Assembly: GCA_963734175.1 (NCBI GenBank)
Contig: CAVTGC010000004.1
Location: 7,875 to 71,874 of the forward strand
From: an uncultured Candidatus Rokubacteria bacterium
GTDB taxonomy: Bacteria > Methylomirabilota > Methylomirabilia > Rokubacteriales > CSP1-6
Direction: 5' to 3'
Length of the DNA stretch: 64,000 nucleotides
Part shown: positions 1 to 61,545 of the stretch, in pieces
Layout of the letters: every line of letters starts with the position of its first letter
How positions within the stretch are numbered: the stretch's first letter is position 1
Notes under the pieces: model-generated
What the model was told of the DNA's origin: nothing
What the model saw: only the letters and a program-made list of their open reading frames with translations
Databases searched by the model: none
Made by a program: the position numbers and the translations under genes

Positions 1-414
1 CCAGCCGGTCGGGCGCCAGCCCCGCCCGCTCGAGCGCCTCCCAGCTCACCTCCAGCACGAGGCGCTGCTGCGGGTCCATGCTGGCCGCCTCGCGCGGGGA
101 GATCCCGAAGAGCTGCGCGTCGAAGCGGTCGACGCCCTCGAGAAACCCACCGTGGAAGGCCGGCAGCCGACGCCGATCCTCGGGGCTCCACCGGTCGGCC
201 GGCACCTCGGTGACCGCGTCCACCCCGTCGTGCAGCAGCGTCCAGTACTCCTCGGGGCTCGTCACGCCGCCCGGGAACCGGCAGCCGACGCCGACGATGG
301 CGATCGGCTCGCGGCCTCGCCGCTCGGCGGCGTCGAGCTTGGTCTGCATCTCCTCGACGGCGCGCAGCGCCTCGCGCAGGAGCGAGCGACGGTCGGGCGT
401 CGTCGGCTCGTCGC

Positions 415-418
<4 letters not shown>
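1..418 (-). CDS. Modular type I PKS subunit F, N-terminal fragment (docking helix and start of KS); gene continues beyond left window edge
   Basis: Minus-strand translation from ATG at 418 (ATGA overlap with stop of upstream subunit at 415-417) gives [51 protein letters not shown]...[19 protein letters not shown]. This is a coiled-coil N-terminal docking segment followed by KS N-terminal motifs. The frame stays open to position 1. Confidence 0.8.
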
Positions 419-7094
<6,676 letters not shown>

Positions 7095-7098
<4 letters not shown>

Positions 7099-10000
7099 GC
7101 GCGCGGCTCCCGCAGGCGCGCGGCGAAGAGCCGGTCGACCTCGTCGTCGGAGAGCTGCTCGATCTGACCGATGGCGTCGACCGGCGCCGGCTCGGGAGTT
7201 GCCGCCTCGAGCGCGGGTGTCAGGGCGAGCACGTCCCGGACGAGGAACTCGGCGATGGCCTCCACCGTCGGATGGTCGAACACGAGCGTCGCCGTCAGCG
7301 GCGTCCCCAGCTCCAGGTCCACCTTGAGCTGGTTGCGCAGCTCTACCGCCATCAGCGAGTCGAGGCCCAGCTCGTTGAGCGGGCGGCGCAGGTCGAGGGC
7401 GCCGTCGCCGAGCCCCAGCACGCGGGTGACGCGGGCCGCGACGTGGGCGACCAGCAGCGGCGCGCGCCGGGCGGCGGGCGCCTCGGCCAGCCGCTGGCGC
7501 AGCCCCGGCCCGGCCGGCGCGGCGGGGGCTTCCGCCACTCCGAGCACGTCGGTCAGCAGCGAGTGGCCGGCCGCGCCCGCCCGGCGTCCGCGCAGGCGCT
7601 CCCAGTCGATGACCGCCGCCGCGACCTGGGCCTGCCCGGACTCGAGCGCGCACTCCAGCGCGGCGATGCCCTCGGCCGGCGTCATCACGCCCACGCCCTG
7701 CAGCCGGATGCGTCGCTCGCGGTCGTCGCGCGCGACGGCACCCACCTCGGCCCACGCCCCCCAGTTCACGCTCAGCCCGGGCAGGCCGGCGGCCCGGCGC
7801 TGGTGGGCCAGGGCGTCGAGGTAGGCGTTGGCGGCGGCGTGATTGCCCTGCCCCGGCGCGCCGAGCAGCGAGGCGATCGACGAGAACAGGACGAAGTAGT
7901 CCAGCGGGTCACCCTGCGTCAGCGTGTGCAGGGCGGCGGCCCCGGCCACCTTCGCCCCCATCACGCGCGCGAACCGCGGCCAGTCCTGCTGCGGGAGGAG
8001 ACCGTCCGCGAGGGAGCCGGCGGCGTGGAAGACGCCGCGCAGCGGCGGCATCGTGGCGCGCACGTCGTCGAGCACCCGCGCGACCTCGCCCGTCACGGAG
8101 ACGTCGGCCTGCAACACTCTCACCTCCGTACCGTCGGCGCGGAGCGACTCGACCGCGGCGAGCGTGGCCGCGTCGGGGGCGCGGCGCCCGACCAGGGCGA
8201 GCGCGCGGGCCCCCCGGTGCGTCAGCCACCGCGCCACCTCGATCCCGAGGCCGCCGAGGCCGCCGGTGATGAGATAGCTCGCGTCCGGACGGATGGCGGG
8301 CAGCGCACGGCCGCCTGATCGCGCGGGCACCGTCACCACGACCTTGCCGATGTGGCGGGCCTGGGCCATGTGGCGAAACGCATCGGCGACGCGGTCGAGC
8401 GAGAAGGTCCGGCGCGGCAGTGGCGTCAGCGCACGATCCCGGCAGGCGCCGACGACATCGAGGAGGACCGTGCGGATGGCATCCGGCGAGACGGCGGCCA
8501 CCTCGCCCCAGTCGATGACGTGGTACGAGGCGCCCGGCCGCCGCTGCGCGACCTCGGCGGCCGTCCACACGCCGCGCTTGCCGATCTCGAGGAAGCGGCC
8601 GCGCGGGGCCAGGGCGCGGAGGCTCTCGGCGATCGCCTCGCCCGACAGCGAGTTGAGCACCACGTCCACGCCCCGCCCGTCCGTGGCGGCGAGGATCTCG
8701 TCGGCGAACGCGGCCGTGCGCGAGTCGAGCACGAGCCGCGCCCCGAGGGCAGCGACGTGCTCGCGCTTGGCCGGCGTGCCGGCGGTGGCGAAGACCTCGG
8801 CGCCCACGGCGCGGGCCACCTGCACGGCGGCCAGCCCGACCCCGCCGGCGGCGGCGTGGATCAGCACGCGCTCGCCCGCGCGCAGGTTCGCGACCGAGCG
8901 CAGGCAGTACCACGCCGTCACGAATGCCACCGGCACCGAGGCGGCTTCCTCGAACGTCCAGTCGGCTGGCTTGGGCACCACCAGCGCCGCCGGCGCCGTG
9001 ACGTGCGTCGCGAAGCTCCCCGCCGCCACCGCCATGACGGGGGCGCCGGGCGCCAGCCCCTCCACGCCGAGACCGACGGCGGTGACGACACCCGCGCACT
9101 CGCTGCCGAGCGGGCCCGGGTCTCCCGGGTAGAGCCCGAGGCCGCTCAGCACGTCCTTGAAGTTCAGGCCGATCGCCCTGACCTCGATCTCGACCTCACC
9201 GGGCCCGGGAGGACGGCGAGCCTGCGGCCGGAGCTCGAGGCTATCGAGCACGCCCGGCGTCGCGGTGACGACGCGGAGCGCGTCCTCGCGGGCCGCGTCG
9301 CGCCGCTCGGCGGCGAACCGGGTGAGACGCGCCACGTGGCGGATCCCGTGGCGGTACGCGACCTCGCTCTCGGTGTCGCCGGCGAGCAGCTCGGCCGCCA
9401 CGAGATCCGCGGCCGCCGGCCCGTCGGTCGGGTCCAGGTCGAGGCAGCGAGTGCGCAGCTCCGGGTGCTCGAGCGCGATCGTCCGCGCCAGCCCCAGCAC
9501 GGGCGCCTGCGCCACCGCCACCGGGCCCTGGTCCACGGCCTGCGCGCCTCGCGTCAGGATCGTGAGCGCCGGGGCGGCGACGCGGCCGCCAGCGGTCAGG
9601 GCCTGCGTGAGGAACAGCAGACTGCCGCAGCTCTCGCGCTGGGCGGTGTCGACCTCGGCGCCGCGCCCGTCGGCCGGCGCATCGAGCGCCGCGCAGTGCA
9701 CGACGCCGCGCCAGCGTCCGCCATCACCCGCGCCCTCGGCGACGACCCGTGCGAAGTCCTCGCGCGCCCCGGGGCCCACCGACCACCGACGGGCCGCGAG
9801 CGGGCCGCCGGCCCCGCCGGCGGAGGCGAGCACGACCGGCTCCCCCCGGCGCTCGAGCGCCGCGGCCAGCGCCTCGCCGAGGCCGGTGCGGTCGGCGAGC
9901 ACGAGCCACGGCGCCGCCGCGGACTCGCGCGGCGCCGAGGCCACGATCACCGTGTTGGCCGCGAACGTCCCGCCGATCGCGGGCGTCGCCGGGACCGTGC

Positions 10001-13000
10001 CCGCCTCGGGGACACCGAGACCGGCCAGCACCGAGCGCCACTGCGACGACGACAGCAGCGGCGAATCCGTGCGGAGGTCGTGATCGGTGAAGTGCCACCA
10101 GCCGTCGGTCAGCCCGAAGGTGACGTCGATCCAGCGCTGGGCCGCGGTGACCTCGAGCAGCACCAGCAAGCCACCCGGCGCGAGCAGCCCCAGGCAGTGG
10201 GCGAGCGTCCGCCGGAGGTCGCGGGTCGCATGCACCACGTTGGCGGCGAGGATCAGATCGAAGCTCCGCGCCTGCAGCCCCTGCTCGAGCGGATCACGCT
10301 CCAGGTCGAGCGGCTGCGTCCGCACGAACGGCCGGTCGCGGAACCGCTCGGCGGCGCGCGAGGTGAACGCCGGCGAGACGTCGGTGAACAGGTAGTCGGT
10401 GGCATCAGCGGGAAGCACCGGCAGCACGGCCGCCGTGGTGCCGCCGGTGCCGCCGCCGACCTCGAGCACGCGCAGGCGCCGCGACGGGGCGAGCCCGGCA
10501 CATGCCGCCGCCACCGTGGCTGCCACCAGCTGCCCGCACGCGCGGGCCGGCGGCGAGTCCGTGTAGAGCGCCTCCGCCACCGCGGTCGAGCCGCCGGGGA
10601 ACAGCAGGTCGAGCGGATCGGCGCCGCCCGTCAGCACCTCGGCGAGCGCGCCGCCGCACCGCTCGGTGAGCGTCAGCTCGGCGCTCGCCTCCGGGTGGCG
10701 CCGGCGCAACGCCTCGAGCCTCGGCCCCGGGGCCGGGGACGGCAGGCGGCCGACCACCGTCCACTCCTGCCCCGTGCGACGCACGATGCCGATCTCTCCG
10801 AGGATCTCGAGGAAGCGGCCGAGCAGCTTGCGATAGCGCGCCAGGACGCCGAGGCGCACGGCGAGCGCGTCCGCGCTCACCCGCTCGCCCGCCGCCGGCG
10901 ACCATCCGAGGCGCGCCAGCGCGGCGACGACATAGTCGGCGGCGATCGCCTCCAGCTCCGGGGTCATCGCGTCGTAGGCGGCAAGACCGGCGTGGGCCTG
11001 GACGCGCGCCAGCTCCGGAGTGACCGCCGTCGCCACCGCGGCGGCATCGGGAAGAGCCCCGGGCTCGCCGGCGCCGGCGGCGAGCGGACGCGGCTCCCAC
11101 TTCACGGCGTAGAGCAGGTCTCGCACGCGGCCGGCGCTCAGCCGTTGCAGCGCGTCGCGGCCGATCGGGACGAGTCGCACGCCGTCGAGCGCCACCAGCA
11201 GCACGCCATCGTCGTCGACGATGCTGACGTCGGCGACCACCGCCCCGCCCGCCGCGCCCTCGCCGCGCACCCGCGCGTGGCTCCAGCACCGCCGGCCCGG
11301 CCGCGCCCACTGCTCGACCCGGTCGATGGCGACGGGCACGTAGCTCGCGGGGCGCCCCGCGAGCGCCGCGCCGATCGGCTGCAGGCAGGCGTCGAGCAGC
11401 GCCGGATGAATCCCGTAGGTCTCGATGTCGAGCTCGTCGGGCATCCGGATCTCGGCGAGCGCCTCGCCGCCCGCTCTCCACACGCGGGCCACGCTCCGGA
11501 GCACGCCGCCGTGCTCGATCCCCCGCCCCCGCATCTCGTCGTAGAGCGCGGCCGGCTCCATCGGCTCGACGCAGCGGGCGCGGATCGTGTCCAGCGGGAG
11601 CGCCGGGGCCGCGCTGGCCGCGGCGAGGCTACGCACGCCGGCGGTGGCGTGCCGCCGCCACGCATCCGGGCGATCGTCGTCCGCGGCGAGGGCCCAGATC
11701 TCGCACGGCAGCACTCCGTCGGCGACGGGGCCGGCGACGATCTGTACCGTCCGGCTCGTGTCCTCGGGCAGGACCAGCGCCTCGTCGAGGGTGACGTGGT
11801 CCGCGCTCCAGGCCTGGCCGCCCAGCACGCGCGCGCCGACGGCCAGGAACATCTCGACGAAGCCGGCCGCGGGCAGCACCGCGACGCCGCCGACGCGGTG
11901 GTCGGCCAGGTACGCGGCCGATCCGGGGCCGAGCTCCGCCTCGAACTGGATCGGGCGGAGCGCGGAGCGAAGCCGGCGCCCGAGCAGCGGGTGCCCGGTG
12001 GCGCCACCCGCGGCGGCCGCACTCGCCACGGCCGGGCTCGACGGCGCCAGCCAGTACCGCGCCCGCTCGAACGGCGAGGTCGGCAGCGAGATCTTTCGCC
12101 GCACGAGGTGACGGTCGACGCCCGTCCAGTCCACGGCGACGCCGCGGATCCAGAGCGCGGCGAGGGCGTCGAGCATCTGGGTCCGATCGGGGCGTCCGCG
12201 CCGCAGCGAGGCGAGCCAGGCGCCGTCGTCCCCGGCCATGGCGTTGCGCGCCATCCCGACCAGCGTCGTCCCCGGACCGATCTCGACGAAGGTGCGATAG
12301 CCCTGGCTCCACAGCGCGCGGATCCCCTCGCCGAAGCGAACGGGCTCCCGCAGGTGGCGGCGCCAGTAGGCGGCGTCGATCTCGTCGGCGCCCGCCACCA
12401 GTCGGCCCGTCACGTTCGACACCCACCCGACCTGCGGCCGTACGGGTCGCAGCGTCGCCGCCACCGACTGGAAGCGATCGAGGATCGGGTCCATGAGCGG
12501 GGAGTGGAACGCGTGGGAGACGGCGAGCGGCTGGGCCTTGACCTGCATCGCGTGCAGCGCGGCCAGGATCGTCTGCACCGCCTCGCCGGCGCCCGAGATC
12601 ACGACGTGCTCGGGACCGTTGACGGCGGCGACGGCCACGCGGTCGCGGTGCGCGGCGACCAGCGAGGCGACGCGCGCCTCGGGGGCGAACACCGCGGCCA
12701 TCTCGCCGCCGCCCGGCAGCGTCTGCATGAGCCGGCCGCGCGCGACGACCAGCCGCAGGGCGTCCTCCAGCGTGAGCGCGCCGGCCGCGCAGGCCGCCAC
12801 GTACTCGCCCACGCTGTGACCGAGCACGGCGGCCGGCGTCACCCCCCACGAGCGCCACAGCTCCAGCAGCGCCCACTCCAGCGCGAAGAGCGCGGGCTGC
12901 GTGTAGGCGGTCTGCCCCAGCCACTCGGCCGCCTCGGCCTCGCCGAAGAGCACGGGCAGCAGCGGACGATCGAGCTCCGCGGAGGCGAGCTCCGCGCACC

Positions 13001-14763
13001 GGTCGAGCGCCTGCCGGAACACCGGCTGGCTGTCGTAGAGATCGCGGCCCATGCCGGGGTACTGCGCCCCCTGCCCGGCGAAGAGGAACGCGATGCGCGG
13101 CGCGTCGGGCCCGGCCGGACATCCGCGACTGACCCCGGAGCCCACCTCGCCCGCGGCCAGCGCGGCGAGCGCAGCGCGCGCCTCGTCGAGCGAGGTCGCC
13201 CGGATCGCCGCCCGGTGGGGCAGGCTCGCGCGCCCGGTGTTCGCGCTGAACGCCACGTCGCCGAGCGCCAGCGTCGGCTCGCTCTCGAGCCGCTGCGCCC
13301 AGCGCCCCGCCAGCTCGCGAAGCGTCGTCTCGCCGCGGGCCGAGAGCGTGAGCAGGTGGGGGCCGCCCGCGGACGCGGCCGGCGCCGGGGCCGGCGCCTC
13401 CTCCACGACGACGTGGGCGTTGGTCCCGCTGAAGCCGAACGAGCTCACGCCGGCCACGCGACGGCGCGGGCCCGCCGGCCACGGCGTCAGCTTGGTCACC
13501 ACCTGGACGGCGAACTCGTCCCACGGGATGTGCGGGCTCGGCTGCTCGAAGTGCAGCTGGGGCGGCAGCGCCTCGTGCTGAAGCGCGAGCACGACCTTGA
13601 TCAGCCCGGCCATGCCCGCGGCCGCCTCGGCGTGGCCGATGTTCGTCTTCACCGAGCCGATCAGCAGCGGGCGCGCCGCCGACCGGCCGCGCGCGAGAAC
13701 GCTGCCGAGGGCTCGGACCTCGATCGGATCGCCGAGCGCCGTCCCGGTGCCGTGCGCCTCGACGTAGTCGACGTCGGCCGGCGCGAGCCCGGCCCGGCCG
13801 AGCGCCTCGCGGATCACCGCCTCCTGGGCGGGGCCGTTGGGCGCGGTGAGCCCGCTGCTGGCGCCGTCCTGGTTGATGGCGGTGCCGCGCAGGAGCGCCA
13901 GCACCCGATCGCCGTCCGCCACGGCGTGCGACAGGCGCTTGAGCACCACGACGCCGCACCCCTCGCCGTCCACGAAGCCGTCGGCGCCGGCGTCGAACGC
14001 CCGGCAGCGTCCGCCCGCCGAGACCATCCGCGACTTCGCGAAGGCGACGCCGTTCTCCGGCGAGAGGATCAGGTTCACGCCGGCGGCCAGCGCCATCCGG
14101 CACTCGTCGGCCCGCAGGCTCTGGCAGGCCAGGTGGAGCGCCACCAGCGACGAGGAGCAGGCGGTGTCCACCGACACGCTCGGGCCCTGCAGCCCCAGCA
14201 CGTACGAGATCCGGCCGGAGGCGACGCTGTGGGCGATGCCGGAGGCGTAGTACGGGCCCACCCGGCCGAGGTCGCCGGTCTTGAGCTGCAGCGCCGCGTA
14301 GTCGCTCGACGCGAGGCCCACGAAGACGCCGGTGCGGCTGCCGGCCAGCCGGTCGGGCGCCTGGCCGGCATCCTCCAGCGCCTCCCACGTCACCTCCAGC
14401 AAGCAGCCGCTGCTGCGGATCCATGCCGGCCGCCTCGCGGGGCGAGACGCCGAAGAACTGGGGATCGAACCGGTCCACCGCGTCCAGGAACCCACCCCGG
14501 CGCGCGTAGCTGCGGCCGGGCGCGTCGGGATCGGCGTCGTAGATCCGCTCGACGTCCCACCGGTCGGCCGGAACCTCGCGCACGGCGTCGACGCCGTCGC
14601 GAAGCACGCGCCAGTATCCGGCCGGGCTGTCGGCACCGCCCGGGAAGCGACAGCCGAGGCCGATCACGGCGATGGGCTCGGTGAGCGCGGCCGTCTGCGC
14701 GTCGAGCCGGGCCTGCATCTCGTCGAGCGCGAGCAGCGCCTGCTTGAGGGGCGAGAGCGGCAC
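7095..14763 (-). CDS. Modular type I PKS subunit D: KS-AT-DH-cMT-ER-KR-ACP (fully reducing, C-methylating module); one frameshift in KS at ~14400-14420 in this assembly
   Basis: The ATG at 14763 gives [43 protein letters not shown]...DPQQRLL in ORF 11629..14763. It continues in ORF 7095..14636 ([12 protein letters not shown]...DTACSSSL). [16 protein letters not shown] plus [21 protein letters not shown] plus [10 protein letters not shown]. c[26 protein letters not shown]...[43 protein letters not shown]-terminal [22 protein letters not shown]. Confidence 0.85.
8339..9269 (-). other. Enoylreductase domain of PKS subunit D (approximate)
   Basis: [26 protein letters not shown] ... [30 protein letters not shown] (MDR-type NADPH site). 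Confidence 0.55.
10004..11099 (-). other. cMT domain of PKS subunit D (approximate boundaries)
   Basis: [21 protein letters not shown] at ~10440-10470, followed by [13 protein letters not shown] and [13 protein letters not shown]. It is located between DH and the KR structural subdomain/ER. Confidence 0.6.
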
Positions 14764-14781: not shown

Positions 14782-17700
14782 TCATCGGAGCGACTCCAGC
14801 CGCTTGAGGAGCATGGCCTCGACGTCCTCGTCGGCGAGGCCGGCCACCTCCTCGACCGTGAGCCGCGGCGCCGAGGTGACCGCCGGCGCGCTCGCCGGAT
14901 CGTCCGGGGTCGCGACGGGCTCGAGCTCGCCCGCGAGGAGACGAGCGATGGCCTCGATCGAGGGGTGGTCGAAGACCAGCGTGGCCGGAAGCGCTCGCGC
15001 CAGGCCGAGCCCGACCCCGAGGCGCTGGCGCAGCTCGAGGGCCATCAGCGAGTCGACGCCCAGATCCATCAGGCGCTGCCGGCGGTCCAGCTCCTCGGGG
15101 GCGTCGAGGCGGAGCACCCGGGCCACGGCCTTGCGCACGTAGCCGATCAGCGCCTCGTGCCGCTCGCTGCCGGCGAGCGCGGTCAGCTGATGACGGAGCT
15201 CGACGGCCGCGGTGGGCGCGGCGGACTCGTGGTCGAGCCCGGCGTCCGCCGCGGCCGCGGCCTCCGCCGTGGGCGCCACCGAGGCGCGCGGCGCGGTGCC
15301 CGGGACCATCGCGACGATCACGTGGTGGGCGAGGACCTCGGCGGGCGAGCCGACCGACGGAAACGCCTCGACCTCGGTGAAGCCGTGCGCGCGGAGCGCC
15401 TCGCTCCAGCGGGCCGGCGCCAGCAGCGGGTGATCGACGCGCCAGCGATCGTCGAAGCGCTGCCAGCCCTCGATGAGGCCGGTCGTCACGTCGAACCACG
15501 ACAGGTGGTCGGTCCCCTCGAAGGCGACGAGGAGCCCGCCCGGGGCGAGCAGGCCGCGGACGTGGTCGAGCGTCCGGTCGAGGTCCTGGGTGGCGTGCAG
15601 GACGTTGGCGGCCACGACCACGTGATAGCTGCCGGGCGCCCATCCCTGCTCGGCCGGCGCCCGCTCGAGATCGAGCAGCCCCGTCTTCACGAACGGATAG
15701 GCCGCGAACTTCCGCGCCGCGTGGCCGAAGAAGAACGTGGACACATCGGTGTAGTGATAGACGGTGCGGGACGCGGGGAGCACGGGCAACACCGCCGAGG
15801 TGGTGCCGCCGGTCCCCGCCCCGACCTCGATGACCCGCAGCGCCAGGTCGGCCGGCTGCGCGCGGACCCACGCCTCGACGGCGGCGCCGACGATCCCGTT
15901 CATGTAACGGGCGAGCGGCCACGCCTGGTACAGGTACTCGGCGGTCTCGACGCTGCCTCCGGGGAACAGCGTCTCCAGCGGACTCTCCGACCCGGACAGG
16001 ATCGCGGCCAGCCGCGTGCCGCAGCGCTCGACGTACGCCATGAGGGGCGGAGTGTCGGCGAGCGCCGCGCGCGCAGCCTCGCGCGACCCCTCGACCGCGC
16101 TCGCCGACAGCGGGGCGGGGCTCACGAGCTCGTCGCCCTCCTCGACCAGGAGACCGGCGGCGACCAGGCGCGCGAGCCAGCGGGACAGCAGGTGCCGCCG
16201 CGCGGCCGGCAGGCTCCAGCGCTCGGCCAGCGCGGCCGCCGTGTGGCGCTCGCCGGCGCGCGTGAAGCAACCCAGCTCCACGAGGGCGGCGGCCACGTAG
16301 GCCAGCGACAGCCGGGCGAGCGACGACCACTTCGCCGGGTAGGAGGCCACGGCGAGATCGAGCGGGCCCTGCTCCGTCTGGCGGCGCCCCGCGGCCACGA
16401 TGCCGGCCCACGCCGCCTCCGGCGTCGCGCTGGCGGGGCGCGGGCGCTCGGCCTCGACCCAGTACCGCGCCCGCTGGAACGGATAGGTCGGCAGCGCGAC
16501 CCGCCGGCGCGACCGGCCCCGCTCGATCGCGGCCCAGTCGACGTCGACGCCTCTCACGTAGAGGGCGGCCAGCGTCTGCAGCACGCAGGCCCGATCGTCC
16601 TCGCCGCGCTTGAGCGTGGGCAGCCAGGTCGCCTCGCCGGGGATGCACGACGGGCCGAACGGCACCAGGGCCGGATGGGGCCCGACCTCCAGGAAGACCT
16701 CGATGCCCTCGGCGTGCAGGGCCCCCAGCCCCTCGGCGAAGCGGACCGGCAGCCGCGCGTGGCGCGCCCAGTACGCGGACGTCACCTCGCCGGCTCCAAC
16801 GACGCGACCGCTCACGTTGGAGACCAGGGCGATGCTCGGCTCGCGGTGCTCGATGCCGGCCGCCTCGGCGCCGAGGGCGGCGAGCGCGGGCTCGACCATC
16901 GGCGAGTGGAACGCGTGCGTCATCGACAGCGGCCGGACGCGGACGCCGTCGCGCTCGAGCGCCGCGCACACCGCGCGGACCGCTTCCACCGTGCCCGACA
17001 GCACGACCTGACCCGGCGCATTCACCGCGGCGATCGACACGTCCGCGCCGTGGGGCGCCAGGCGCGGCGTCACCTCCGCCTCGGACATCCACACCGCGGC
17101 CATCGCCCCCTCCGGCAAGGCGTCCATGACCCGCCCGCGGAGGGCGACGAGGCGCGCGGCGTCGGCCAGCGGGAAGACGCCGGCCACGCAGGCCGCCGCG
17201 TACTCGCCCAGGCTGTGGCCGATCACGGCCGCGGGCTCGACGCCGTAGGCGCGCCACATGGCGGCCAGCGCATACTCGACGGCGAACATCGCGGGCTGGG
17301 CCTCGCGGGCCTCGGCGAGCGTCGCCGGCGCCGCCGGCGTCCGCGGCGAGGAGCGTCCGCAGCGGACGGTCGAGGTGCGGATCGAGCGCGGCCGCGCACT
17401 CGTCGAGCGCGCGTCGGAACACGGGCTCGCTCTCGTAGAGGCGCGCGCCCATGCCGGCGTACTGGGGGCCCTGCCCGGTGAACAGGAAGGCGACGCGCGC
17501 CGGCCCGATCGTACGCGCCGCTCCGGTCAGCACCCCGTCGGCCTCCGCCCCCGCGGCGAGCGCGCCGAGCCGCGCCTGCATCTCTGCCGTGCTGCCGGCG
17601 ATGACGGCGGCGCGGTGGCCGAAGTGGCTGCGGCCGGTGGCGGCGGTGAAGCACACGTCGGCGAGATCCTGCCCGGGTGTCTCGGCCAGGTGGCGGGCGT

Positions 17701-19169
17701 AGCGGGCGGCCAGCTCGCGGAGGGCCGCCGGGCTCTTGGCCGAGAGCGGCAGCACGTAGGCCGGCCGCTCGTCGGTGGCCGCCGGTGAGTCCGCGGGCGC
17801 GGCCTCCACGATCACGTGCGCGTTGGTGCCGCTGAACCCGAACGCGCTCACGCCGGCGACCCGCGGCACCGCGGTGTCCACCCACGGCCGCCGCCGCGTC
17901 ACGACCTCGAGCGGCAGCTCGTCCCAGGCGATGTGCGGGCTCGGCGTGTCGTGATGCAGGTGGGCCGGCAGCTCGCCGTGCTGCAGGGCCAGCACGACCT
18001 TGATCAGCCCCGCGATCCCGGCGGCCGCCTCCAGATGGCCGATGTTCGTCTTGACCGAGCCGATCGCCACGCGAGCGCCGGCCGGGCGCGCGCCGAGGGC
18101 CGCACCGAGCGCGCGCGTCTCGATCGGATCGCCGAGCGCCGTCCCCGTCCCGTGCGCCTCGACGTAGGACACGCGCGCGGCGTCGATCCGGGCCGCGGCC
18201 AGCGCCTGGCGGATGAGGGCCGTCTGGGCGGGGCCGTTGGGGACGGTGAGCCCGCTCGTCCGCCCGTCCTGGTTCACGGCCGAGCCGCGGATGACGGCGA
18301 GGATCCGGTCGCCGTCCGCCACGGCGTCACTCAGCCGCTTGAGCACCACCACCCCGACGCCCTCACCCCGCACGTAACCGTCGGCGGCGGCGGCGAACGT
18401 CCGGCAGCGGCCGCCCGGCGAGAGCAGCCGCGCCCGGCAGAAGTTCACGGTGAGGTCGGGCCAGAGGACGAGGTTGGCACCGGCGGCGAGGGCCAGGCGA
18501 CACTCGGCGGCGCGCAGGCTCTGACAGGCGAGGTGGACCGCCACCAGCGACGAGGAGCACGCGGTGTCGACGGCCACGCTCGGGCCCTGCAGGCCGAGGA
18601 CGTAGGACAGGCGGCCGGCCGCCACGCTGTGCGAGGTCCCGGTGGCGAAGTAGGGATCGACGTCGTCGATCGCCCCCGCGCGGGCCTGCAGGTGCGCATA
18701 GTCGTTGGTGCCGATCCCGACGAACACGCCGGTGTCGGTGCCGGCCAGCCGATCCGGAGCCTGGCCGGCGTGCTCGAGCGCCTCCCAGGCCACCTCGAGC
18801 AACAGCCGCTGCTGGGGGTCCAGGCTGCGCGCCTCGCGCGGCGAGATGCCGAAGAACCCCGGGTCGAATCGATCGACGTCGGCGACGAACGCCCCGTGAC
18901 GCGTGTACATGCGGCCGGCGGCGTCCGGGTTCGCGTCGTAGTAGGCCTCGATGTCCCAGCGCTCGGCCGGGATCTCGGTCACGGCATCGACGCCGTCGTG
19001 GAGCAGACGCCAGTAGGCCTCCGGATCGCGGGCGCCGCCCGGAAAGCGGCAGCCCAGCCCGACGACGGCCACCGACTCGGTGGTCAGCCGCTCGGCCGCC
19101 TCCAGACGCCCGCGCAGACGGCGGATCTCGAGGAGCGCCTGCTTGACCGGCGAGAGCGGCTCGTTCTCG

Positions 19170-19177
<8 letters not shown>
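14782..19177 (-). CDS. Modular type I PKS subunit C: KS-AT-MT-ACP (no KR/DH/ER); one frameshift inside AT at ~17300-17340 in this assembly
   Basis: N-term [31 protein letters not shown]...[46 protein letters not shown] begins [16 protein letters not shown] in ORF 14390..19177 and continues as [11 protein letters not shown]...[14 protein letters not shown]...THAFHS in ORF 14782..17289. Then MT ([14 protein letters not shown]), ACP ([13 protein letters not shown]) and docking tail [15 protein letters not shown]. Stop at 14782-14784 lies 19 nt before the subunit D start. Confidence 0.85.
15340..16390 (-). other. Methyltransferase domain of PKS subunit C located between AT and ACP (C-MT or O-MT; approximate boundaries)
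   Basis: SAM motif [24 protein letters not shown] at ~15800-15830, followed by [13 protein letters not shown] and [13 protein letters not shown]. There is no KR between the MT and the ACP. Confidence 0.6.
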
Positions 19178-30970
<11,793 letters not shown>

Positions 30971-30974
<4 letters not shown>

Positions 30975-31747
30975 CGACGGACACTGCCTCCGACCATCGT
31001 CTCGGGGACCGCGGCCAGCTCACGGGCCAGGGCGGCGAGGAGCTCCTCGCGCGCGCTCCGGATGAAGAAGTGCGTGCCGGCGAAACGCGTGAGCGTGAAC
31101 GCCCCCCGCGTCTGGGCTCGCCAGGCGGCCAGCTCCGCCTCGTTCGCAACCGGATCGTCCTCGCCGCCATACACCGAGATCGGGCAGGCCAGCGGCTCCT
31201 CGGCGCGGCACCGGTAGTCCTCGACGAGGGCGAGGTCGGCGCGCAGACAGGGGAGCAGGAGCGCCATGAGGTCCGGATGGCGCAGCACCTCGGTCGGGAC
31301 CCCGTCGTAGCGCGTGCGCAGCTCGTCGAGGAACTCCGCATCCGGCAGGTGCGCGAGCGGAGCGCGCGGATTCGGGAGCTGCGGGGCGCGGTGCCCGGAC
31401 ACGAACAGGTGGGCCGGCGCCGGCGCGCCCTCGGCCCGCAGCCGTCGCGCCAGCTCGAACGCGATGAGCGCTCCCATGCTGTGGCCGAACAGCGCGAACG
31501 GCATGTCGAGATGGGGCCGGAGGACCTGGACGGTGGCGTCCATCATCTCCGCGAATCGGGTATAGGCCGGCTCGCGCAGCCGGTTCTCCCGGCCGGGCAG
31601 CTGGACGGCGCACACATCGACCATCGGCAGCTGTCGGGCCCACGGCATGTACACCGAGCCGCCGCCGCCGGCGTACGGCAGGCAGACCAGGCGGACGCGG
31701 GCCCGCCGATCGCCGCCCGCTCGAAGCAACCACGAGCTCGCGTTCAC
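30971..31747 (-). CDS. Type II (discrete, editing-type) thioesterase, alpha/beta hydrolase
   Basis: 258 aa with LFGHSMGALIAFELARRL (GxSxG nucleophile elbow) and the overall TEII pattern (PYAGGG... N-terminus). GTG start at 31747 with GGGAGG 7 nt upstream. Its stop overlaps the PKS-A start (ATGA). Confidence 0.85.
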
Positions 31748-53087: not shown

Positions 53088-53780
53088 TCACGCCAGCGTG
53101 CCCACCCGCAGGCGCTCGTACAGCATGCTGATCCACTCGGCGTGGGCGGCGTCGCGCCACACCTGGAAGAACGGCGAGGCCTGCATCTCTCTGAACTCGC
53201 GGCTCGCGCGGTCCCGGGTCTCCTCCGACGTCTCGCCGGACTTCGGCGAGGTCTGGGCGGCACGGATGCGGTCCTTGCGGTAGACCTGCGGGAACTCCGT
53301 GTAGCGGTACAGCTCCCGCATCTCCCGGGTGAAGAACACGACGACCGGGATCGACTGATAGGTCGTGCCATCGCGGCGGTTCAGGTACTGCGCCATCAGG
53401 TCGGCGTTCGGCGACTCCCGGGGGTCGGGCTCGGGGGTGGCGCCGAAGCGCTGACCGTCGCGCGGGAAGATGCGCAGCTCGAGGCCGACGGTGTCGGCAA
53501 CCTTGCCCAGCAGCGGAATATCGCGGCGGCAGTCCGATGACCACTCCTCGGAGAGCGCCAGCACCTTGGCCGGTCCACCCGGCTGGCCCACGAGCCACGT
53601 CCAGGCGGCCTGCTCGGCCGCCGACAGCTGCGTGGCGTCGTACGTCTCCTGCAGGTGAGCGCTCCAGCGCCGGCCGGAGCCGCCGGGCGATGCCTCCCGC
53701 TTCAGGTTCTCGGGCGTCGCCGTGAATGCCACGTACTGCGCAAATGTCATCCCCTGCCCGAACCGCTCCGCCGTCACCAT
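53088..53780 (-). CDS. Thioredoxin-like fold protein (single Cys; function unclear)
   Basis: ~230 aa from the ATG at 53780 (AAGGAG SD), overlapping the upstream stop in ATGGTGA. Weak thioredoxin-like pattern (SEEWSSDCRRDIPLLGKV...VVVFFTREMRELYRY). Confidence 0.4.
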   Translation of the reverse strand: MVTAERFGQGMTFAQYVAFTATPENLKREASPGGSGRRWSAHLQETYDATQLSAAEQAAWTWLVGQPGGPAKVLALSEEWSSDCRRDIPLLGKVADTVGLELRIFPRDGQRFGATPEPDPRESPNADLMAQYLNRRDGTTYQSIPVVVFFTREMRELYRYTEFPQVYRKDRIRAAQTSPKSGETSEETRDRASREFREMQASPFFQVWRDAAHAEWISMLYERLRVGTLA

Positions 53781-55370
53781 CGCACGGGCTCCTTGTGCTC
53801 GCCGAAGACGCGTTTCATCGACTGACAGATCTCCCCCAGCGTCGCGTACACCTTCACCGCTTCCAGGATGGGCGGCATGAGGTTGCCGGTGCCGCGCGCC
53901 TCGTCGGCCAGGCGGCCCAGCGCCGCCTGCACGGCGACACCGTCGCGGTCGCGCCGCACCCGGGCCAGCTTGGCGAGCTGGGTCTCGGACACCCGGGGAT
54001 CGAAGGCGTACAGCTCCACGTCCTGGTCGGCCTCGGCGGCCCGCTCGCCCACGTGGCAGTTGACGGCCACCTTGCGGATCTCGCCGGAGACCATCGCCTG
54101 CTCGAACCGGTAGGCCTGACGGGCGACCTCGGCCTGGATGGCGCCGGTCTTCACGGCCTCGACGATGCCGCCCATGCGCTCGACCGCGGCCAGCTCCTCG
54201 ACGATCTTCGCCTCCATCTCGTTGGTCAGCGCCTCGACGTAGTAGGACCCGGCCAGCGGGTCCGCGGTGTCGGCGGCGCCCGATTCCTCGGCGCAGATCT
54301 GCATCGTCCGCAGCGCGATGAGCTGGGCCTTGGGCGACGGGATCGTGTACGCCTCGTCGTAGGTCGGCAGCGCCATCGTCTGGGCCCCGCTCAGCGCGCC
54401 GGCCAGCGCGATGTAGGCGCCGCGCACGATGTTGTTCTCCGGCTCCTGCATCGTGAAGGCCGAGCCGCCGCCGCCGATGAGCGAGCGGAACATCCACGAC
54501 TTGGGGCTCTGGGCCCCGAACCGCTCGCGCAGCATCCGGGCGTAGAGCCGGCGGCCGGCCCGGAACTTCGCCACCTCCTCGAAGATCTTGCCCCAGCGCG
54601 GTGAAGTTGAACGAGATACGCGGCGCGAACTCGTCGACCGTCATCCCCCGCGCCAGCATCATCTCCACGTAGGCGGCGGCGATGGCCAGGCCATAGGCCA
54701 TCTCCTGGGCCGTGGTGCAGCCGGCCTCGCGGATGTGGTAGCCGCACACCGAGACCGGGTTGGAGCGCGGGAAGTGCCGGGCCGAGAACTCGATGAGGTC
54801 GCCGACCAGCCGCAGCGAGGGCTCGACCGGGTAGATCCAGGTGCCGCGGGCGACAAACTCCTTGAGGATGTCGTTCTGCGGCGTCGTCACCACGCGGTCG
54901 GCGGCCGCCCCCTGCTGCTCGGCCACCGCGTAGTACATGGCGGTGATCGGCGCCGCCATGCCGTTGATCGTGAGCGAGACGCTCACGCGGTCGAGCGGGA
55001 TGCCGGCGAACGCCGCCTCCATGTCGGCCAGCGTGTCGATCGCCATGCCGACGCGGCCCACCTCGCCCTCGGCCTTGGGATCGTCCGAGTCGAGACCGAG
55101 CTGGGTCGGCAGGTCGAAGGCGACGTTGAGGGCGTCCTGGCCGTGGGCCATCAGGTACTTGAATCGGGCGTTCGTCTCCTCGGGCGTGCCGAAGCCGATG
55201 TACTGCCGCATCGTCCACAGGCGGTCGCGGTACATGTGCTTGTGGATTCCGCGCGTGTACGGATACTCGCCGGGCGCTCCGATGTCGCGGGCGGCGTCCC
55301 GCCCGGCCAGGTCCTCCGGTCCGTATACCGGCTTGACCGGGATGCCCGCGTGCAGCTTCACGTCCCTCAT
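53774..55370 (-). CDS. B12-dependent acyl-CoA mutase, large catalytic (TIM-barrel) subunit without fused B12 domain (IcmA/HcmA/split-MCM type); one frameshift at ~54575-54590 in this assembly
   Basis: ATG at 55370 (GGAGGA SD). [21 protein letters not shown]...[78 protein letters not shown]...[12 protein letters not shown] in one frame. Then (I/L)[18 protein letters not shown]...[51 protein letters not shown]...[13 protein letters not shown]... in ORF 53774..54574. Total ~532 aa. Confidence 0.8.
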
Positions 55371-57502: not shown

Positions 57503-58860
57503 GGGAGCACCGGCCATACGCTGTCGATCCGCACGCCGGCCCGCCGCACGTGCTCGCGACTGAGCCGCTCCACGCGCTCGTACAGCGTGCGCTCGTCGAG
57601 CGTCGTCAGCCGTCCCTCGTCGAGCACGACCCGGCCGTCGATCAGCACGGTCCGGACGCTGGCGCCGCTGGCGGCGTACACCAGGTTGTTGACGGGATTC
57701 AGCAACGGCCGCCACTCCGGCGTGTCGAGGTCGTACAGGACCAGATCCGCGCGCTTGCCCGGCTCGATGGAGCCGATCTGCCGATCCAGCCGCAGCGCCT
57801 CGGCCCCGCGGATCGTGCCCATCTCCAGCACCCGCTCGGCCGGCAGCACGCCGACGTCGTTGCGGGCGTCCTTGTAGACGGTCGCGGCCAGGTACATGAG
57901 GCGCAGCATGTCGAAGTGGTTGGAGCCGTTGCCGCTGTCGCCGCCGAGCGAGACGCACACGCCGGCGTCGACCATCTCCGGGAAGCGTCCGTGCGCGGCC
58001 AGCCCCTTGGTGTGCTTGAGCCCCGCGGTCGGGCAGTGGGCGATCTTGACGCCGCGCCGGGCCAGCAGCGCGATGTCGGCGTCGTCCACGTAGACCATGT
58101 GGGCCAGCTTGGTGCGGGCGTCGAGCACGCCGAGCGCGTCCAGACGTGTCAGCGGGATCGTGTCGCGGCTCGGGCGCGAGGGGTGCAGCGCGCTCTGCAT
58201 CATCCCCCACCCCACGCCGTGGCGCCCGGCCAGCGCGTGGGCGCCCCGGATGAGTGCCTCCGAGCAGGTGCCGAAGCCGAGCAGCAGCGGCCAGGCGCCG
58301 AGGCGGCCGTCGGCACGGCCATTCACCTTGCCGAGCACGTCCTCGGTGAGCGCCAGCGCCTCGTCCGTCGTCTGCTTCATGCGGCCGCTCTGCCCGTCGA
58401 GGTCCCACGTCCATCGGCCGAGGATCGCCCGCATGCCGACCTGCTCGACGGCGTCGGCGACGGCGGCCACGTCGAAGAGCGTGCCCGCCTCGCAGAACGT
58501 CGTGGTCCCGGTGCGGATCATCTCCACGCAGGCCAGCAGGGCGGCCGCCTGCTCCTCCTCCGGCGTCACCGTCGAGTAGAGCGGCAGCAGCCAGTCGGGC
58601 AGGTAGCGCGGCACCGGGACGTCGTCGAGCATCAGGCCGCGGCTCAGGTGCTCGGTGAGGTGCACGTGGGTGTCGACGAACCCGGGTGCCACCAGGTACC
58701 GGCGGCCGTCGATCACCCGGTCCGGGGTCCGCGGGGGCCGGACCGACGCGGCCGGCCCCACCTGCACCACGTCGCGGCCGTCCACCAGCACCGAGCCGTC
58801 CGCAAGGATCCGCCGCTGGGGGTCCAGCGTGAGGATCGTGGCGTGCTCGATCAGGATCAC
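57499..58860 (-). CDS. Amidohydrolase-superfamily metal-dependent hydrolase (chlorohydrolase/nucleobase deaminase-like)
   Basis: ~453 aa from the GTG at 58860 (GTGA overlap). VILIEHATILTLDPQ..., PGFVDTHVHLTEH (HxH metal motif), later HCPTAGLKH and D-containing C-terminal motifs. Confidence 0.75.
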   Translation of the reverse strand: MILIEHATILTLDPQRRILADGSVLVDGRDVVQVGPAASVRPPRTPDRVIDGRRYLVAPGFVDTHVHLTEHLSRGLMLDDVPVPRYLPDWLLPLYSTVTPEEEQAAALLACVEMIRTGTTTFCEAGTLFDVAAVADAVEQVGMRAILGRWTWDLDGQSGRMKQTTDEALALTEDVLGKVNGRADGRLGAWPLLLGFGTCSEALIRGAHALAGRHGVGWGMMQSALHPSRPSRDTIPLTRLDALGVLDARTKLAHMVYVDDADIALLARRGVKIAHCPTAGLKHTKGLAAHGRFPEMVDAGVCVSLGGDSGNGSNHFDMLRLMYLAATVYKDARNDVGVLPAERVLEMGTIRGAEALRLDRQIGSIEPGKRADLVLYDLDTPEWRPLLNPVNNLVYAASGASVRTVLIDGRVVLDEGRLTTLDERTLYERVERLSREHVRRAGVRIDSVWPVLP

Positions 58861-59816
58861 GAGCGCTCCGATCGCAGGCGTCGTAGCAGCGCCCGCACCT
58901 TGTCGGTCTCGAACGCCTCGCGCCGGTCGCCGGTGTAGTCGAAGAAGCCGCGGCCCGTCTTGGGCCCCAGCTCGTTGCGCGCCATCTTCTCCTCGACGAG
59001 GCGGGCCGGCCGGAACCGCTCGTCGCCCGTCGCCTCGGTCATGTAGCGGCTGGCCCGGTACAGGATGTCCACGCCGCCCCAGTCGATGAACTCGAAGATC
59101 CCGATCGACGCGTAGCGAAAGCCCATGCCGGCCTTGAAGGCGCGGTCGACGTCCTCCGGCGTGGCCACGCCCTCCTCGACCAGCCGCACCGCCTCGTTCA
59201 TCAGCAGCACCTGCAGCCGCGGGCCGATGAAGCCGGGCGAGTCGCCGCACCGCACCGGGGTCTTGCCGAGGCTCTCGAGCAGCGCCAGCGTCCGTTCGAC
59301 CGTGGCCGGCGCCGTGCGCGGGCCCGGTACCACGTCGACGAGCGGGATGATGTGAGCCGGGTTGAGCCAGTGGGCGACCAGGAACCGCTCCGGCCGCTCC
59401 ACCGCGTCGCACACGTGGGAGGGCGAGATCGTCGACGACCCCGAGGCGACGATGGCGTCGGCGTCGACGACGCCGCTCACGCGGGCCAGCGCCGCCTGCT
59501 TGAGCGGCACCGATTCCGGCAGCGCCTCCTGCACGAAGCCGCACCCCTTCAGCGCGTCGAGGCCCACCCGCTCCTCGATGCGGCCCAGCACGGCGGCCGC
59601 CTCCGCCTCGTCGATCACGCGCTCCTCGACCATGAGGCCGACGTCGCGGACGATCTCGCGGCGGGCGTCGGCCAGCGTGCGCGCGGCCTCGGCGGCCGGG
59701 CGCCCGTCCTTGACGTCGACCAGGCGCACGGGGCAGCCGCCCAGCGCGAAGGCCAGCGCGATCTGGCGGCCGATCCGGCCGGGCCCGAGGACGGCGATCG
59801 TGGGCCGCTCCGTCAC
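58857..59816 (-). CDS. 3-hydroxyacyl-CoA dehydrogenase (NAD-binding, HBD/FadB C-terminal type)
   Basis: 319 aa. IAVLGPGRIGRQIALAFALGG Rossmann motif. ...SGSSTISPSHV..., HWLNPAHIIPLVDVV, FIGPRLQ. Confidence 0.8.
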   Translation of the reverse strand: MTERPTIAVLGPGRIGRQIALAFALGGCPVRLVDVKDGRPAAEAARTLADARREIVRDVGLMVEERVIDEAEAAAVLGRIEERVGLDALKGCGFVQEALPESVPLKQAALARVSGVVDADAIVASGSSTISPSHVCDAVERPERFLVAHWLNPAHIIPLVDVVPGPRTAPATVERTLALLESLGKTPVRCGDSPGFIGPRLQVLLMNEAVRLVEEGVATPEDVDRAFKAGMGFRYASIGIFEFIDWGGVDILYRASRYMTEATGDERFRPARLVEEKMARNELGPKTGRGFFDYTGDRREAFETDKVRALLRRLRSERS

Positions 59817-60982
59817 GCGGGGTCCTTGCCGTAGATCATCACCACGTGCTCGCCCATGCCGCTGTTGTTGTGGGTGAGGCCGATGGCGGCCTCCGGCACC
59901 TGCCGGGCGCCGGCCTCGTCGCGCAGCTGAACGAAGACCTCGGCGGCCTGGGCCACGCCGGTGGCACCGAGCGGATGGCCACAGCCGATCAGCCCGCCCC
60001 GCGGGTTGACGACGAGGTCGCCGCCGTAGTCGCTGCGCCCGGCGGCCGCGAACGGTCCCGCCTCGCCCTTGGCGCAGAAGCCCAGCTCCTCGTAGGCGAT
60101 CAGCTCGGCGATCGCGAAGCAGTCGTGCACCTCGGCGAGGTCGACGTCACCCGCGGTGATCCCGGCCATGCGGTAGGCCGCCGCGCCCGCGCGGTGCAGC
60201 GCGGGCCAGCGGGCGTAGTCCTCGTGCAGCGAGGTGAGCTGGAAGCCGTCGAGGGCCTGGCCGGTACCGCGGATCCACACGGGCCGGTCGGTGAGGTCGC
60301 GGGCCCGCTCCTCGCTGGCCAGCACGACGGCGGCCGCGCCGTCGGTGATCGGCGAGCACATGAACAGGCGCAGCGGGCTCGAGATCATCCGCGAGCCGAG
60401 CACCTGGTCGAGCGTGGCGCCCTTGTTGAAATGGGCGTTGGGGTTCTTGGAGGCGTGGGTGTGGTTCTTCACGCCGACCCGGGCCAGCTGCTCCTCCGTC
60501 GTGCCGTACTCGGCCATGTGGCGCTGGGCGGCCAGCGCGAAGCAGGGCGGCGCCGTGAGCCCGAACGCCGCCTCCCACTCGCGGTCCACGCCGGTGCCCA
60601 TGTTCAGGATCGCCTCGTCGCCGCTCGGCTGGTTGAGCTTCTCCACGCCGAGCACCATCACCAGGTCGGCCAGGCCAGCGGCGATGAACGCGTAGGCGTA
60701 GCGGATGCCCACGGTGCCGGAGGCGCACATGTGCTCGGTGCGCGCGCTCAGCGTGCTGGGCCGGATGCCGAGCGCCTCGGCGGTGAGCGACGAGATGTGA
60801 CTCTGGAACGCCGTGCGCTCGGGCATGACGGAGCCGACGACGAGCCCGTCGACGTCCCGCGGCTTCACGGCCGGCACCGAATCGAAGCAGGCCTTGCCGG
60901 CCTCCCAGATCAGGTCGCGGTACGAGGCCTTGCGGACGCCGAACTTGGTGACCCCGGCGCCGACCAGCGCGACGCGCTTCAT
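59813..60982 (-). CDS. SCPx-type (non-decarboxylating, lipid-transfer-protein-like) thiolase
   Basis: 389 aa. MKRVALVGAGVTKFGVR..., active-site Cys context (TEHMCASGTVG), C-terminal GGLIGCGHPLGATG. Typical partner of DUF35 proteins. Confidence 0.8.
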   Translation of the reverse strand: MKRVALVGAGVTKFGVRKASYRDLIWEAGKACFDSVPAVKPRDVDGLVVGSVMPERTAFQSHISSLTAEALGIRPSTLSARTEHMCASGTVGIRYAYAFIAAGLADLVMVLGVEKLNQPSGDEAILNMGTGVDREWEAAFGLTAPPCFALAAQRHMAEYGTTEEQLARVGVKNHTHASKNPNAHFNKGATLDQVLGSRMISSPLRLFMCSPITDGAAAVVLASEERARDLTDRPVWIRGTGQALDGFQLTSLHEDYARWPALHRAGAAAYRMAGITAGDVDLAEVHDCFAIAELIAYEELGFCAKGEAGPFAAAGRSDYGGDLVVNPRGGLIGCGHPLGATGVAQAAEVFVQLRDEAGARQVPEAAIGLTHNNSGMGEHVVMIYGKDPA

Positions 60983-61545
60983 GGCAGCTCTCCCCGGAGC
61001 CGGCGCGCGACGTGCGCGTGGCCCTGTTCCTCGGCGATCGTGAGTGCCGTCTTGCCGTCGTCGGTGCGCGCCTCGGCCGCCGCTCCGTGGGCCAGCAGCG
61101 CGTTGACGACCGGGACGTCGTCACGGAAGGCGGCGATGTGCAGCGGCGTGTAGCCGCGGGCGGCCCGGGCGTTGACGTCGGCGCCGCCGGCCAGGAGCCG
61201 GCTGACGATGCGGAGGTCGGCGCGCCCGGCCAGTCCGGCGTGCAGCGCGGTGTTGGCCTCGTGGTTGTCGGAGCGTGCCCGCACGTCGGCCCGCGCGTCC
61301 AGGAGCGCGTCGACGGCGTCACCGTGACCGAAGTGGGCGGCCAGGTGCAACGCCGGCCAGCCGTCGGGGCTGCGTATTCCGAGCGAGGCCGGCTCGGCCC
61401 GGGCCAGCGCGCGCACGCGGGCGGCATCGCCGAGGGCGGCGGCCTCGCACAGCGTCGGCGTGGCCCCGTCGGCCACGAGCCGCTCGGCGGCGGCGCGGTC
61501 GCCGCGGTAGACCGCGGCCAGGATCGGCGTGGGCGTGGCCGTCAT
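60979..61545 (-). CDS. Ankyrin-repeat protein (~188 aa, 3-4 repeats)
   Basis: ATG at 61545 (ATGA overlap with the HAD stop). Repeats such as DGWPALHLAAHFGHGDAVDALLDARADV, NTALHAGLAGRADLRIVSRLLAGGADVNA and GYTPLHIAAFRDDVPVVNALLAHGAAAEA carry the TPLH/ALH ankyrin signatures. Confidence 0.6.
   Translation of the reverse strand: MTATPTPILAAVYRGDRAAAERLVADGATPTLCEAAALGDAARVRALARAEPASLGIRSPDGWPALHLAAHFGHGDAVDALLDARADVRARSDNHEANTALHAGLAGRADLRIVSRLLAGGADVNARAARGYTPLHIAAFRDDVPVVNALLAHGAAAEARTDDGKTALTIAEEQGHAHVARRLRGELP

Follow-up and report, generated by a model that had tools for sequence, protein, structure and literature searches.

Does a polyketide methyltransferase that sits in a module with no reductive domains methylate carbon or oxygen, and how many methyls does it add? 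The question is raised by subunit C, one of the giant genes of a polyketide synthase (PKS) operon in an uncultured Candidatus Rokubacteria bacterium (GenBank assembly GCA_963734175.1, contig CAVTGC010000004.1, positions 7,875 to 71,874; this whole stretch of 64,000 nucleotides is called the window). A preliminary description of this DNA left the choice between a C-methyltransferase (C-MT), which would give an alpha-methyl or gem-dimethyl beta-keto unit, and an O-methyltransferase (O-MT), which would give a beta-methoxy enol ether. The first option stood, as the domain matches the C-MT of CurJ and has the fold and the catalytic residues of that family, and the second fell, as the O-MTs StiD and StiE were not matched. 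From sequence, a structural model and analogy with known systems, we consider it very likely that subunit C is a C-methylating, keto-retaining module giving a 2-methyl- or 2,2-dimethyl-3-oxoacyl unit. C-methylation would fix the predicted chemistry at this point of the assembly line as a methyl-branched ketone and not a methoxyacrylate-type pharmacophore.

The gene for subunit C lies on the minus strand, with a GTG start at 19177 that overlaps the stop of the subunit B gene and a stop at 14782. Pfam recognised ketoacyl-synt (E=4.5e-102) and Ketoacyl-synt_C (4e-43) in the ketosynthase (KS), the linker between KS and acyltransferase (AT), Acyl_transf_1 in two pieces, one per reading frame (1.9e-9 and 6.1e-49), Methyltransf_12 (1.8e-18) in the methyltransferase (MT) and PP-binding (3.9e-11) in the acyl carrier protein (ACP). 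No Pfam match to a ketoreductase (KR), dehydratase (DH) or enoylreductase (ER) was obtained in subunit C and, since only about 40 residues separate the AT from the lid of the MT and about 50 the MT from the ACP, there is no room for a cryptic one. The hallmarks of a cis-AT extension module are all present, namely the Cys/His/His of the KS, GHSLGE and HAFH in the AT and the DSL serine of the ACP. Pfam content, motifs and tight spacing thus uphold the KS-AT-MT-ACP order without KR, DH or ER that had been described for this gene. The S-adenosylmethionine (SAM)-binding motif reported between AT and ACP is present at 15799-15834, and the MT domains of subunits D and E do lie between DH and KR, the Pfam order being DH-MT-ER-KR in D and DH-MT-KR in E.

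The 377-residue MT region of subunit C was used as a phmmer query against all PDB chains and gave 13 matches at E<=1. The best was the C-MT of CurJ (5THY, E=2.2e-62), followed in this order by the C-MT of DisA/DszA (6CCA), the CMeT domain of PksCT (5MPT), CalH, AprA MT2, LovB and PsoF; nothing beyond these chains of the C-MT family was significant in that search. A structure prediction, which had been proposed as a check in the preliminary description, was made with AlphaFold2 on 25 orthologous MT domains. The model reached a mean pLDDT of 94 and shows the C-MT fold, being aligned by Foldseek against the PDB with 5THY at TM 0.88 (rmsd 2.2 Å, 355 columns); this alignment, of 355-373 columns, takes in residues 1-190 and with them the N-terminal helical lid. 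The next matches were 6CCA (DszA, TM 0.84), 6D6Y (AprA MT2, 0.84) and 5MPT (PksCT, 0.82), then PsoF, CalH and LovB, and outside the C-MT family TM was about 0.45 at best. The PKS O-MTs StiD and StiE (6ecu, 6ecx) appeared neither among the phmmer matches at E<=1 nor in the Foldseek top 50.

In the active-site frame of the O-MTs, the catalytic residue is Glu in the beta-hydroxy type and Gln in the beta-keto type. In subunit C, EVGAGTGG and YTDVS align with EIGAGTGG and FTDIG of CurJ, that is, with motif I and the acidic residue after strand 2, and EYLY, NVLHAT and FEGT align exactly with the Tyr, His and Glu of CurJ, DisA and PksCT. The ExGxG form of motif I is typical of C-MTs (Ansari et al., PMC2613160), and a Tyr together with a His-Glu dyad constitutes the C-MT active site (PMC9821293, PMC7327777). 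All 84 full-length orthologues of subunit C have these same Tyr, His and Glu residues. On the sequence and model data we assign the domain as a C-methyltransferase of the CurJ/PksCT/DisA type.

The nearest solved relative of the MT of subunit C is the C-MT of CurJ from the curacin PKS (5THY/5THZ). The two have in common the lid and class I SAM core, the Tyr/His/Glu set and the ExGxG motif, and both MTs belong to cis-AT modules with a malonyl-type AT. They differ in that the MT of CurJ follows a DH in a reducing module and adds one methyl only, whereas that of subunit C is placed between AT and ACP, and in their signature, which is GLLEGWWxF in CurJ and GLIEGWQxF in subunit C.

Tight clustering with the MTs of subunits D and E had been expected of a C-methylating domain, and this was not borne out. 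The MT of subunit C is 42% identical to that of D and 41% to that of E, against 49% between D and E, and in a neighbour-joining tree with 200 bootstraps the MTs of the KS-AT-MT-ACP type split off (64% bootstrap) from D and E with their orthologues, CurJ, DisA, PksCT and HMWP1; yet the domain is of the C-MT family. The C-type MTs carry signatures such as SPLETLF and GLIEGWQxF; the counterparts in D, E and CurJ are DPLQLLF and GLxEGWWxF. Identity to CurJ is 43-44.5% for D and E and 35.5% for C, and the MT of subunit C is 32% identical to that of DisA and 33% to that of HMWP1. As far as sequences can tell, this separation is that of a distinct, old orthologue group and not of another chemistry class. 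The earlier suggestion that the MT of subunit C, being positioned differently, may have a different function thus loses its O-methylating side, and all that is left of it is that the domains may differ in how many methyls they transfer.

Subunit C belongs to a family that is widely spread. The best 120 homologues of its AT-MT-ACP part are nearly all proteins of about 1460 residues with the same Pfam content and an identity of 45-52% (median length of the 83 near-full-length ones, 1458 residues), with Chloroflexi, Anaerolineae, Rhizobacter, Burkholderiaceae, Anaeromyxobacter and Gemmatimonadales among their named sources. A KR was detected by Pfam in none of the 120, and the NADPH motif of a KR in none of the 114 that have the GHSxGE motif of the AT. 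In a HMMER scan of 1.84 billion cluster representatives, 3579 proteins matched the C-MT at E<=1e-30; of the 150 best, over 100 (each standing for a protein cluster at 50% identity) have the MT at about 920-1300 of a protein of about 1460 residues or are fragments of such a protein.

The gene order A-B-C-D-E returns in six further loci, which belong to several phyla. With matching sizes, it was found in an Anaeromyxobacter metagenome-assembled genome (MAG), a Gemmatimonadales MAG, two JGI metagenome contigs and one NCBI assembly, and in Piscinibacter aquaticus (L086, GCA_007994965.1) the visible part of the locus, from D onwards, is consistent with it. We assign the operon, by its genes, to Rokubacteria, Gemmatimonadales, Anaeromyxobacter and Burkholderiales, and probably also to Chloroflexi. 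The 139-residue N-terminus of subunit F, the last gene in the window, gave as a query mainly short KS fragments, plus one contig that supplied the downstream context. This contig (L006, 10001-20618), from a long-read metagenome and 98.8% identical to the window, and a Candidatus Rokubacteria MAG (L009, 4371-24542), 94% identical to the window, are the nearest relatives. In these relatives, F is KS-AT-DH-KR-ACP and is followed by a non-ribosomal peptide synthetase (NRPS) of 4609 residues, with four condensation-adenylation-thiolation modules and a thioesterase (TE), and then by a phosphopantetheinyl transferase (PPTase). The cluster is accordingly read from its gene content as a PKS-NRPS hybrid with six PKS and four NRPS modules.

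The KS-AT-cMT-ACP module type as such is already known from PyrF and from gem-dimethyl modules. What sets the present one slightly apart, to judge from the predicted proteins, is its context, an uncharacterised PKS-NRPS cluster that spans phyla and in which a KR-less, C-methylating module is strictly conserved while the motif of its AT drifts. When a characterised orthologous cluster was sought in the plasmid collection, the only relatives obtained were cyanobacterial ones and that of yersiniabactin, with 36-43% identity, and literature searches on the module architecture and on Rokubacteria yielded no described product or named cluster. Outside the orthologue family the closest MT, with 44% identity and the EGWQ signature in common, is that of the pNLP2 PKS of Nostoc sp. 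'Lobaria pulmonaria' (WP_104910212.1; L008 10213-18653). This PKS, too, consists of one KS-AT-MT-ACP module, and an NRPS comes after it, but in a different context, with a vanadium haloperoxidase, a P450 and one PKS module. The subunit C module can serve as a marker of this conserved orphan cluster in many uncultured soil lineages. Moreover, the variable AT motif beside the invariant MT provides a comparative set on the control of single versus double methylation, which is relevant to engineering gem-dimethyl groups into polyketides.

We propose that subunit C is the third module to extend the chain in a cis-AT assembly line. Its AT would load malonate and its KS would condense the malonate unit with the chain coming from subunit B. 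The CurJ-type C-MT, with SAM, the His-Glu dyad and the conserved Tyr, would then methylate the alpha-carbon of the ACP-bound beta-ketoacyl chain. Since subunit C has no KR, DH or ER, the beta-keto group would be kept and a 2-methyl-3-oxoacyl chain handed to the KS of subunit D, or a 2,2-dimethyl-3-oxoacyl chain if the MT were to act twice. It is by analogy with the systems compared here that we propose this order of steps, a ketone that persists into the final product and how many methyls are added. The ATs of C, D and E are all of the malonyl type (HAFH), so the methyl branches of all three modules would come from SAM.

Some points weigh against a C-methylating, keto-retaining subunit C. The gene is frameshifted in this assembly. 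The MT is just 35.5% identical to CurJ and stands in a clade of its own, and we infer its exact regiochemistry and methyl count. A KR acting in trans could come from outside the visible region. Furthermore, a resemblance to C-MTs was noted for two onnamide MTs that carried an O-MT annotation (Ansari et al., PMC2613160), and these cases make membership of the C-MT family strong evidence of C-methylation and not absolute proof.

As for the number of methyls, we give the addition of a single one nearly an even chance. Exhaustive methylation, in which two methyls are added before or after condensation to give a gem-dimethyl ketone as in yersiniabactin HMWP1 and epothilone module 8, is a variant of C-methylation that we hold to be quite possible, if somewhat short of even. 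Subunit C has no DH, which would require an alpha-proton, and no KR to compete with a second methyl transfer, and its MT type forms a clade apart from the domains of D, E and CurJ, which necessarily mono-methylate. Methylation in gem-dimethyl modules can reportedly come before condensation, a finding ascribed to Poust et al. (Angew. Chem. 2015). MT domains that gem-dimethylate form a recognised class, but one for which no sequence signature is known (PMC7327777), and the MT of subunit C is no nearer to DisA or HMWP1 than to the mono-methylating CurJ; these two known gem-dimethylating MTs group in the tree neither together nor with subunit C.

The known gem-dimethyl systems were compared with subunit C. 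HMWP1 (KS-AT-cMT-KR-ACP) has its MT right after the AT, as subunit C does, with a colinear AT-MT match of 35.5% identity. HMWP1, epothilone module 8 and DisA/DszA also have in common with subunit C the lack of a DH and C-MTs of the same fold (TM 0.84 for 6CCA). HMWP1 differs by having a KR and DisA by belonging to a trans-AT line, and their MTs, at 32-33% identity, fall outside the clade of subunit C. PyrF, of the same architecture as subunit C, is described as giving a propionate-equivalent unit with a single methyl, which argues for one transfer.

The AT motifs of the orthologues bear on the same question. At the HAFH position, the 84 full-length orthologues have HAFH (23), HAAH (11), QASH (10), YASH (8), HGFH (6), IASH (3) and others. 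Motifs resembling those of methylmalonyl ATs are thus found in a number of them (YASH in 8/84, QASH/IASH/WASH in 14/84), although the MT residues never change, and orthologues with YASH, from one of the two JGI contigs, and with QASH, from the NCBI assembly, occupy the same A-E operon. Should the xASH ATs load methylmalonate, the MT beside them, if active, has to make a gem-dimethyl group, and the same MT supplied with malonate would be expected to methylate twice. However, the motif of the subunit E AT varies too (HAFH/LAAH/IAGH), in a module where the DH forbids a gem-dimethyl group, so that drift of the motif may not report the substrate. In the readable loci, D has HAFH in 8/8 and B YAFH in 7/7; besides C, the motif varies in A and E, and as a proxy for the extender unit of subunit C it is suggestive but not decisive. 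The YASH orthologue, moreover, retains malonyl-like flanking motifs.

A further-reaching proposal, which we regard as doubtful, is that the subunit C family is a module specialised in exhaustive C-methylation with retention of the keto group, within a PKS-NRPS pathway of uncultured soil bacteria that is either ancient or widely transferred. If true, the MT would always yield a quaternary gem-dimethyl centre and the AT would be free to drift between motifs of the malonyl and methylmalonyl types with the product unchanged, which would explain the unusual spread of AT motifs (HAFH, HAAH, QASH, YASH and others) beside an invariant MT site.

A C-methylated unit could also lose its ketone. Reduction by a stand-alone KR in trans, as Pyr2 does on PyrF, would give a 2-methyl-3-hydroxy unit, and this we find improbable. 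The pyridomycin protein PyrF is by description a KS-AT-MT-ACP module with a C-MT methyl branch and no KR, in a PKS-NRPS hybrid, as here, and it relies on the FabG-like Pyr2; in addition, only part of the Rokubacteria genome is visible. But Pyr2 is encoded in the pyridomycin cluster, whereas no gene of the short-chain dehydrogenase/reductase or FabG type lies in or adjoining the present one, where transporters and primary metabolism are found upstream of the type II thioesterase gene. A FabG-like stand-alone KR was found neither in the flanks within the window nor in the downstream parts of L009, L006 and L086. The L009 cluster ends with the NRPS-TE and PPTase genes, and the Piscinibacter locus adds EamA transporters only.

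Equally improbable in our judgement is a genuine frameshift in the AT that would make subunit C a pseudogene, or a module that the assembly line skips. The reading frame does shift by 1 nt, once, inside the AT at 17337-17348, and the window holds no single intact open reading frame (ORF) for this subunit. Nevertheless, the frameshift-repaired protein has about 1464 residues, each half aligns colinearly with intact orthologues, which are 1461-1462 residues long (P0004, L004_C), and codon-position GC is gene-like on either side of the shift (third-position GC about 0.95). Isolated 1-nt shifts occur also in B (21947-21961), D (14401-14414) and E (3571 and 1842), where colinearity with intact orthologues is again complete and there is no further decay. 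The shift at 3571 is a difference in homopolymer length, C4 versus C5, by which the window departs by one base from both L006 and L009, and L009 covers both shift sites of subunit E as one ORF. The shift at 1842 is present also in L006, a second assembly, which speaks for a genuine change, but split genes abound in the long-read metagenome assemblies from which the related contigs were taken. The shifts in B to E are probably errors of long-read assembly in very GC-rich DNA. Because the one at 3571 is of the homopolymer type and L009 is intact through both sites in E, the shift in subunit C is most likely an assembly error as well, judging from the behaviour of the others.

Finally, O-methylation of the beta-keto enol to a beta-methoxy enol ether, as by MtaF/CtaF and LynB2/BarF/JamN, is very improbable in spite of the onnamide cases and of the KS-AT-MT-ACP architecture of MtaF and CtaF, which act on 3-oxoacyl-ACP and are identical to subunit C in domain order (PMC10127204), because the domain has the sequence matches, fold, lid, ExGxG motif I and Tyr/His/Glu set of a C-MT, because the StiD/StiE family, a separate one (PDB 6ecu/6ecx) to which LynB2, BarF, JamN and MtaF belong (PMC10127204), is matched neither in sequence (E<=1) nor in fold (top 50), and because the MTs of D and E, to which that of subunit C is 41-42% identical, must be C-MTs as they lie in modules with DH, ER and KR domains.

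The window has a G+C content of 72-77% over its first 31 kb, dropping past about 32 kb. For the operon, Pfam scans of translated pieces gave the order type II thioesterase-A-B-C-D-E-F on the minus strand, and adjacent genes overlap or almost touch at their start and stop codons (Table 1).

Table 1. Genes of the operon and domains and motifs of subunit C, in window positions (cMT, C-methyltransferase domain)
Feature	Position	Strand	Basis
Type II thioesterase, operon gene 1; overlaps subunit A start	30971..31747	-	Pfam
Subunit A, KS-AT(VASH)-degenerate DH-like region-KR-ACP	25617..30974	-	Pfam, motifs
Subunit B, KS-AT(YAFH)-DH-ER-KR-ACP, frameshift 21947-21961	19170..25638	-	Pfam, motifs
Subunit C, KS-AT-cMT-ACP	14782..19177	-	Pfam, motifs
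Subunit C, KS domain; Cys in DTACSSS, HGTGT, NIGH	17951..19078	-	Pfam, motif scan
Subunit C, AT domain	16546..17488	-	Pfam, motif scan
Subunit C, AT GHSLGE	17203-17220	-	motif scan
Subunit C, AT HAFH, malonyl-type	16903-16917	-	motif scan
Subunit C, C-methyltransferase domain, N-terminal helical lid and class I SAM-MT core	15283..16413	-	sequence, model
Subunit C, SAM-binding motif I, ExGxG form	15799..15834	-	motif scan
Subunit C, AEYLY, conserved active-site Tyr	15928..15942	-	alignment
Subunit C, AANVLHAT, catalytic His	15589..15612	-	alignment
Subunit C, LVAFEGT, Glu of His-Glu dyad	15511..15531	-	alignment
Subunit C, ACP; GVDSLMA, Ser at 15040-15060	14935..15141	-	Pfam, motif scan
Subunit D, KS-AT(HAFH)-DH-cMT-ER-KR-ACP, frameshift 14401-14414	7095..14763	-	Pfam, motifs
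Subunit E, KS-AT(HAFH)-DH-cMT-KR-ACP, frameshifts 3571 and 1842	415..7098	-	Pfam, motifs
Subunit F start, KS, first 139 codons, truncated by window edge	1..418	-	ORF and relatives

Subunit A opens directly with a KS, without a loading module, and the VASH motif of its AT is methylmalonyl-like. Its residues ~855-1395 (window 26790-28410), a stretch of 540 residues between AT and KR, gave no Pfam match and are colinear (E=1e-43) with a region of the orthologue L087 in which a DH can be recognised. In subunit A, HPWLTAHVRP stands in place of the DH motif, and the sequence suggests a DH that is degenerate and possibly inactive. If it is inactive, the hydroxyl of module A would be placed 1,5 to the ketone of module C, and a six-membered hemiketal could form.

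Beyond about 32 kb the window contains no biosynthetic genes, but transporters and primary metabolism instead. At about 36 to 38.5 kb there are a gene resembling those of acyl-CoA synthetases and a hotdog gene of the MaoC type. A methylmalonyl-CoA mutase fragment (53774-54640) and a beta-oxidation-type run of 3-hydroxyacyl-CoA dehydrogenase, thiolase and acyl-CoA dehydrogenase genes (58857-63880) are located 23-33 kb upstream of the cluster. It is a speculation that any of these genes are tied to precursor supply.

The related loci show some variation of their own. In the Burkholderiales isolate Piscinibacter aquaticus, two EamA-family transporter genes (11874-13678) stand between E and the next PKS gene, the F variant has an additional ER, and the NRPS that follows begins with a TubC_N docking domain. 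In a relative of 66% identity (L002, 8672-15838), the gene after C has an MT that groups with the E type of the window (91% bootstrap) and not with the D type, which hints that the order of the modules has been rearranged in that lineage.

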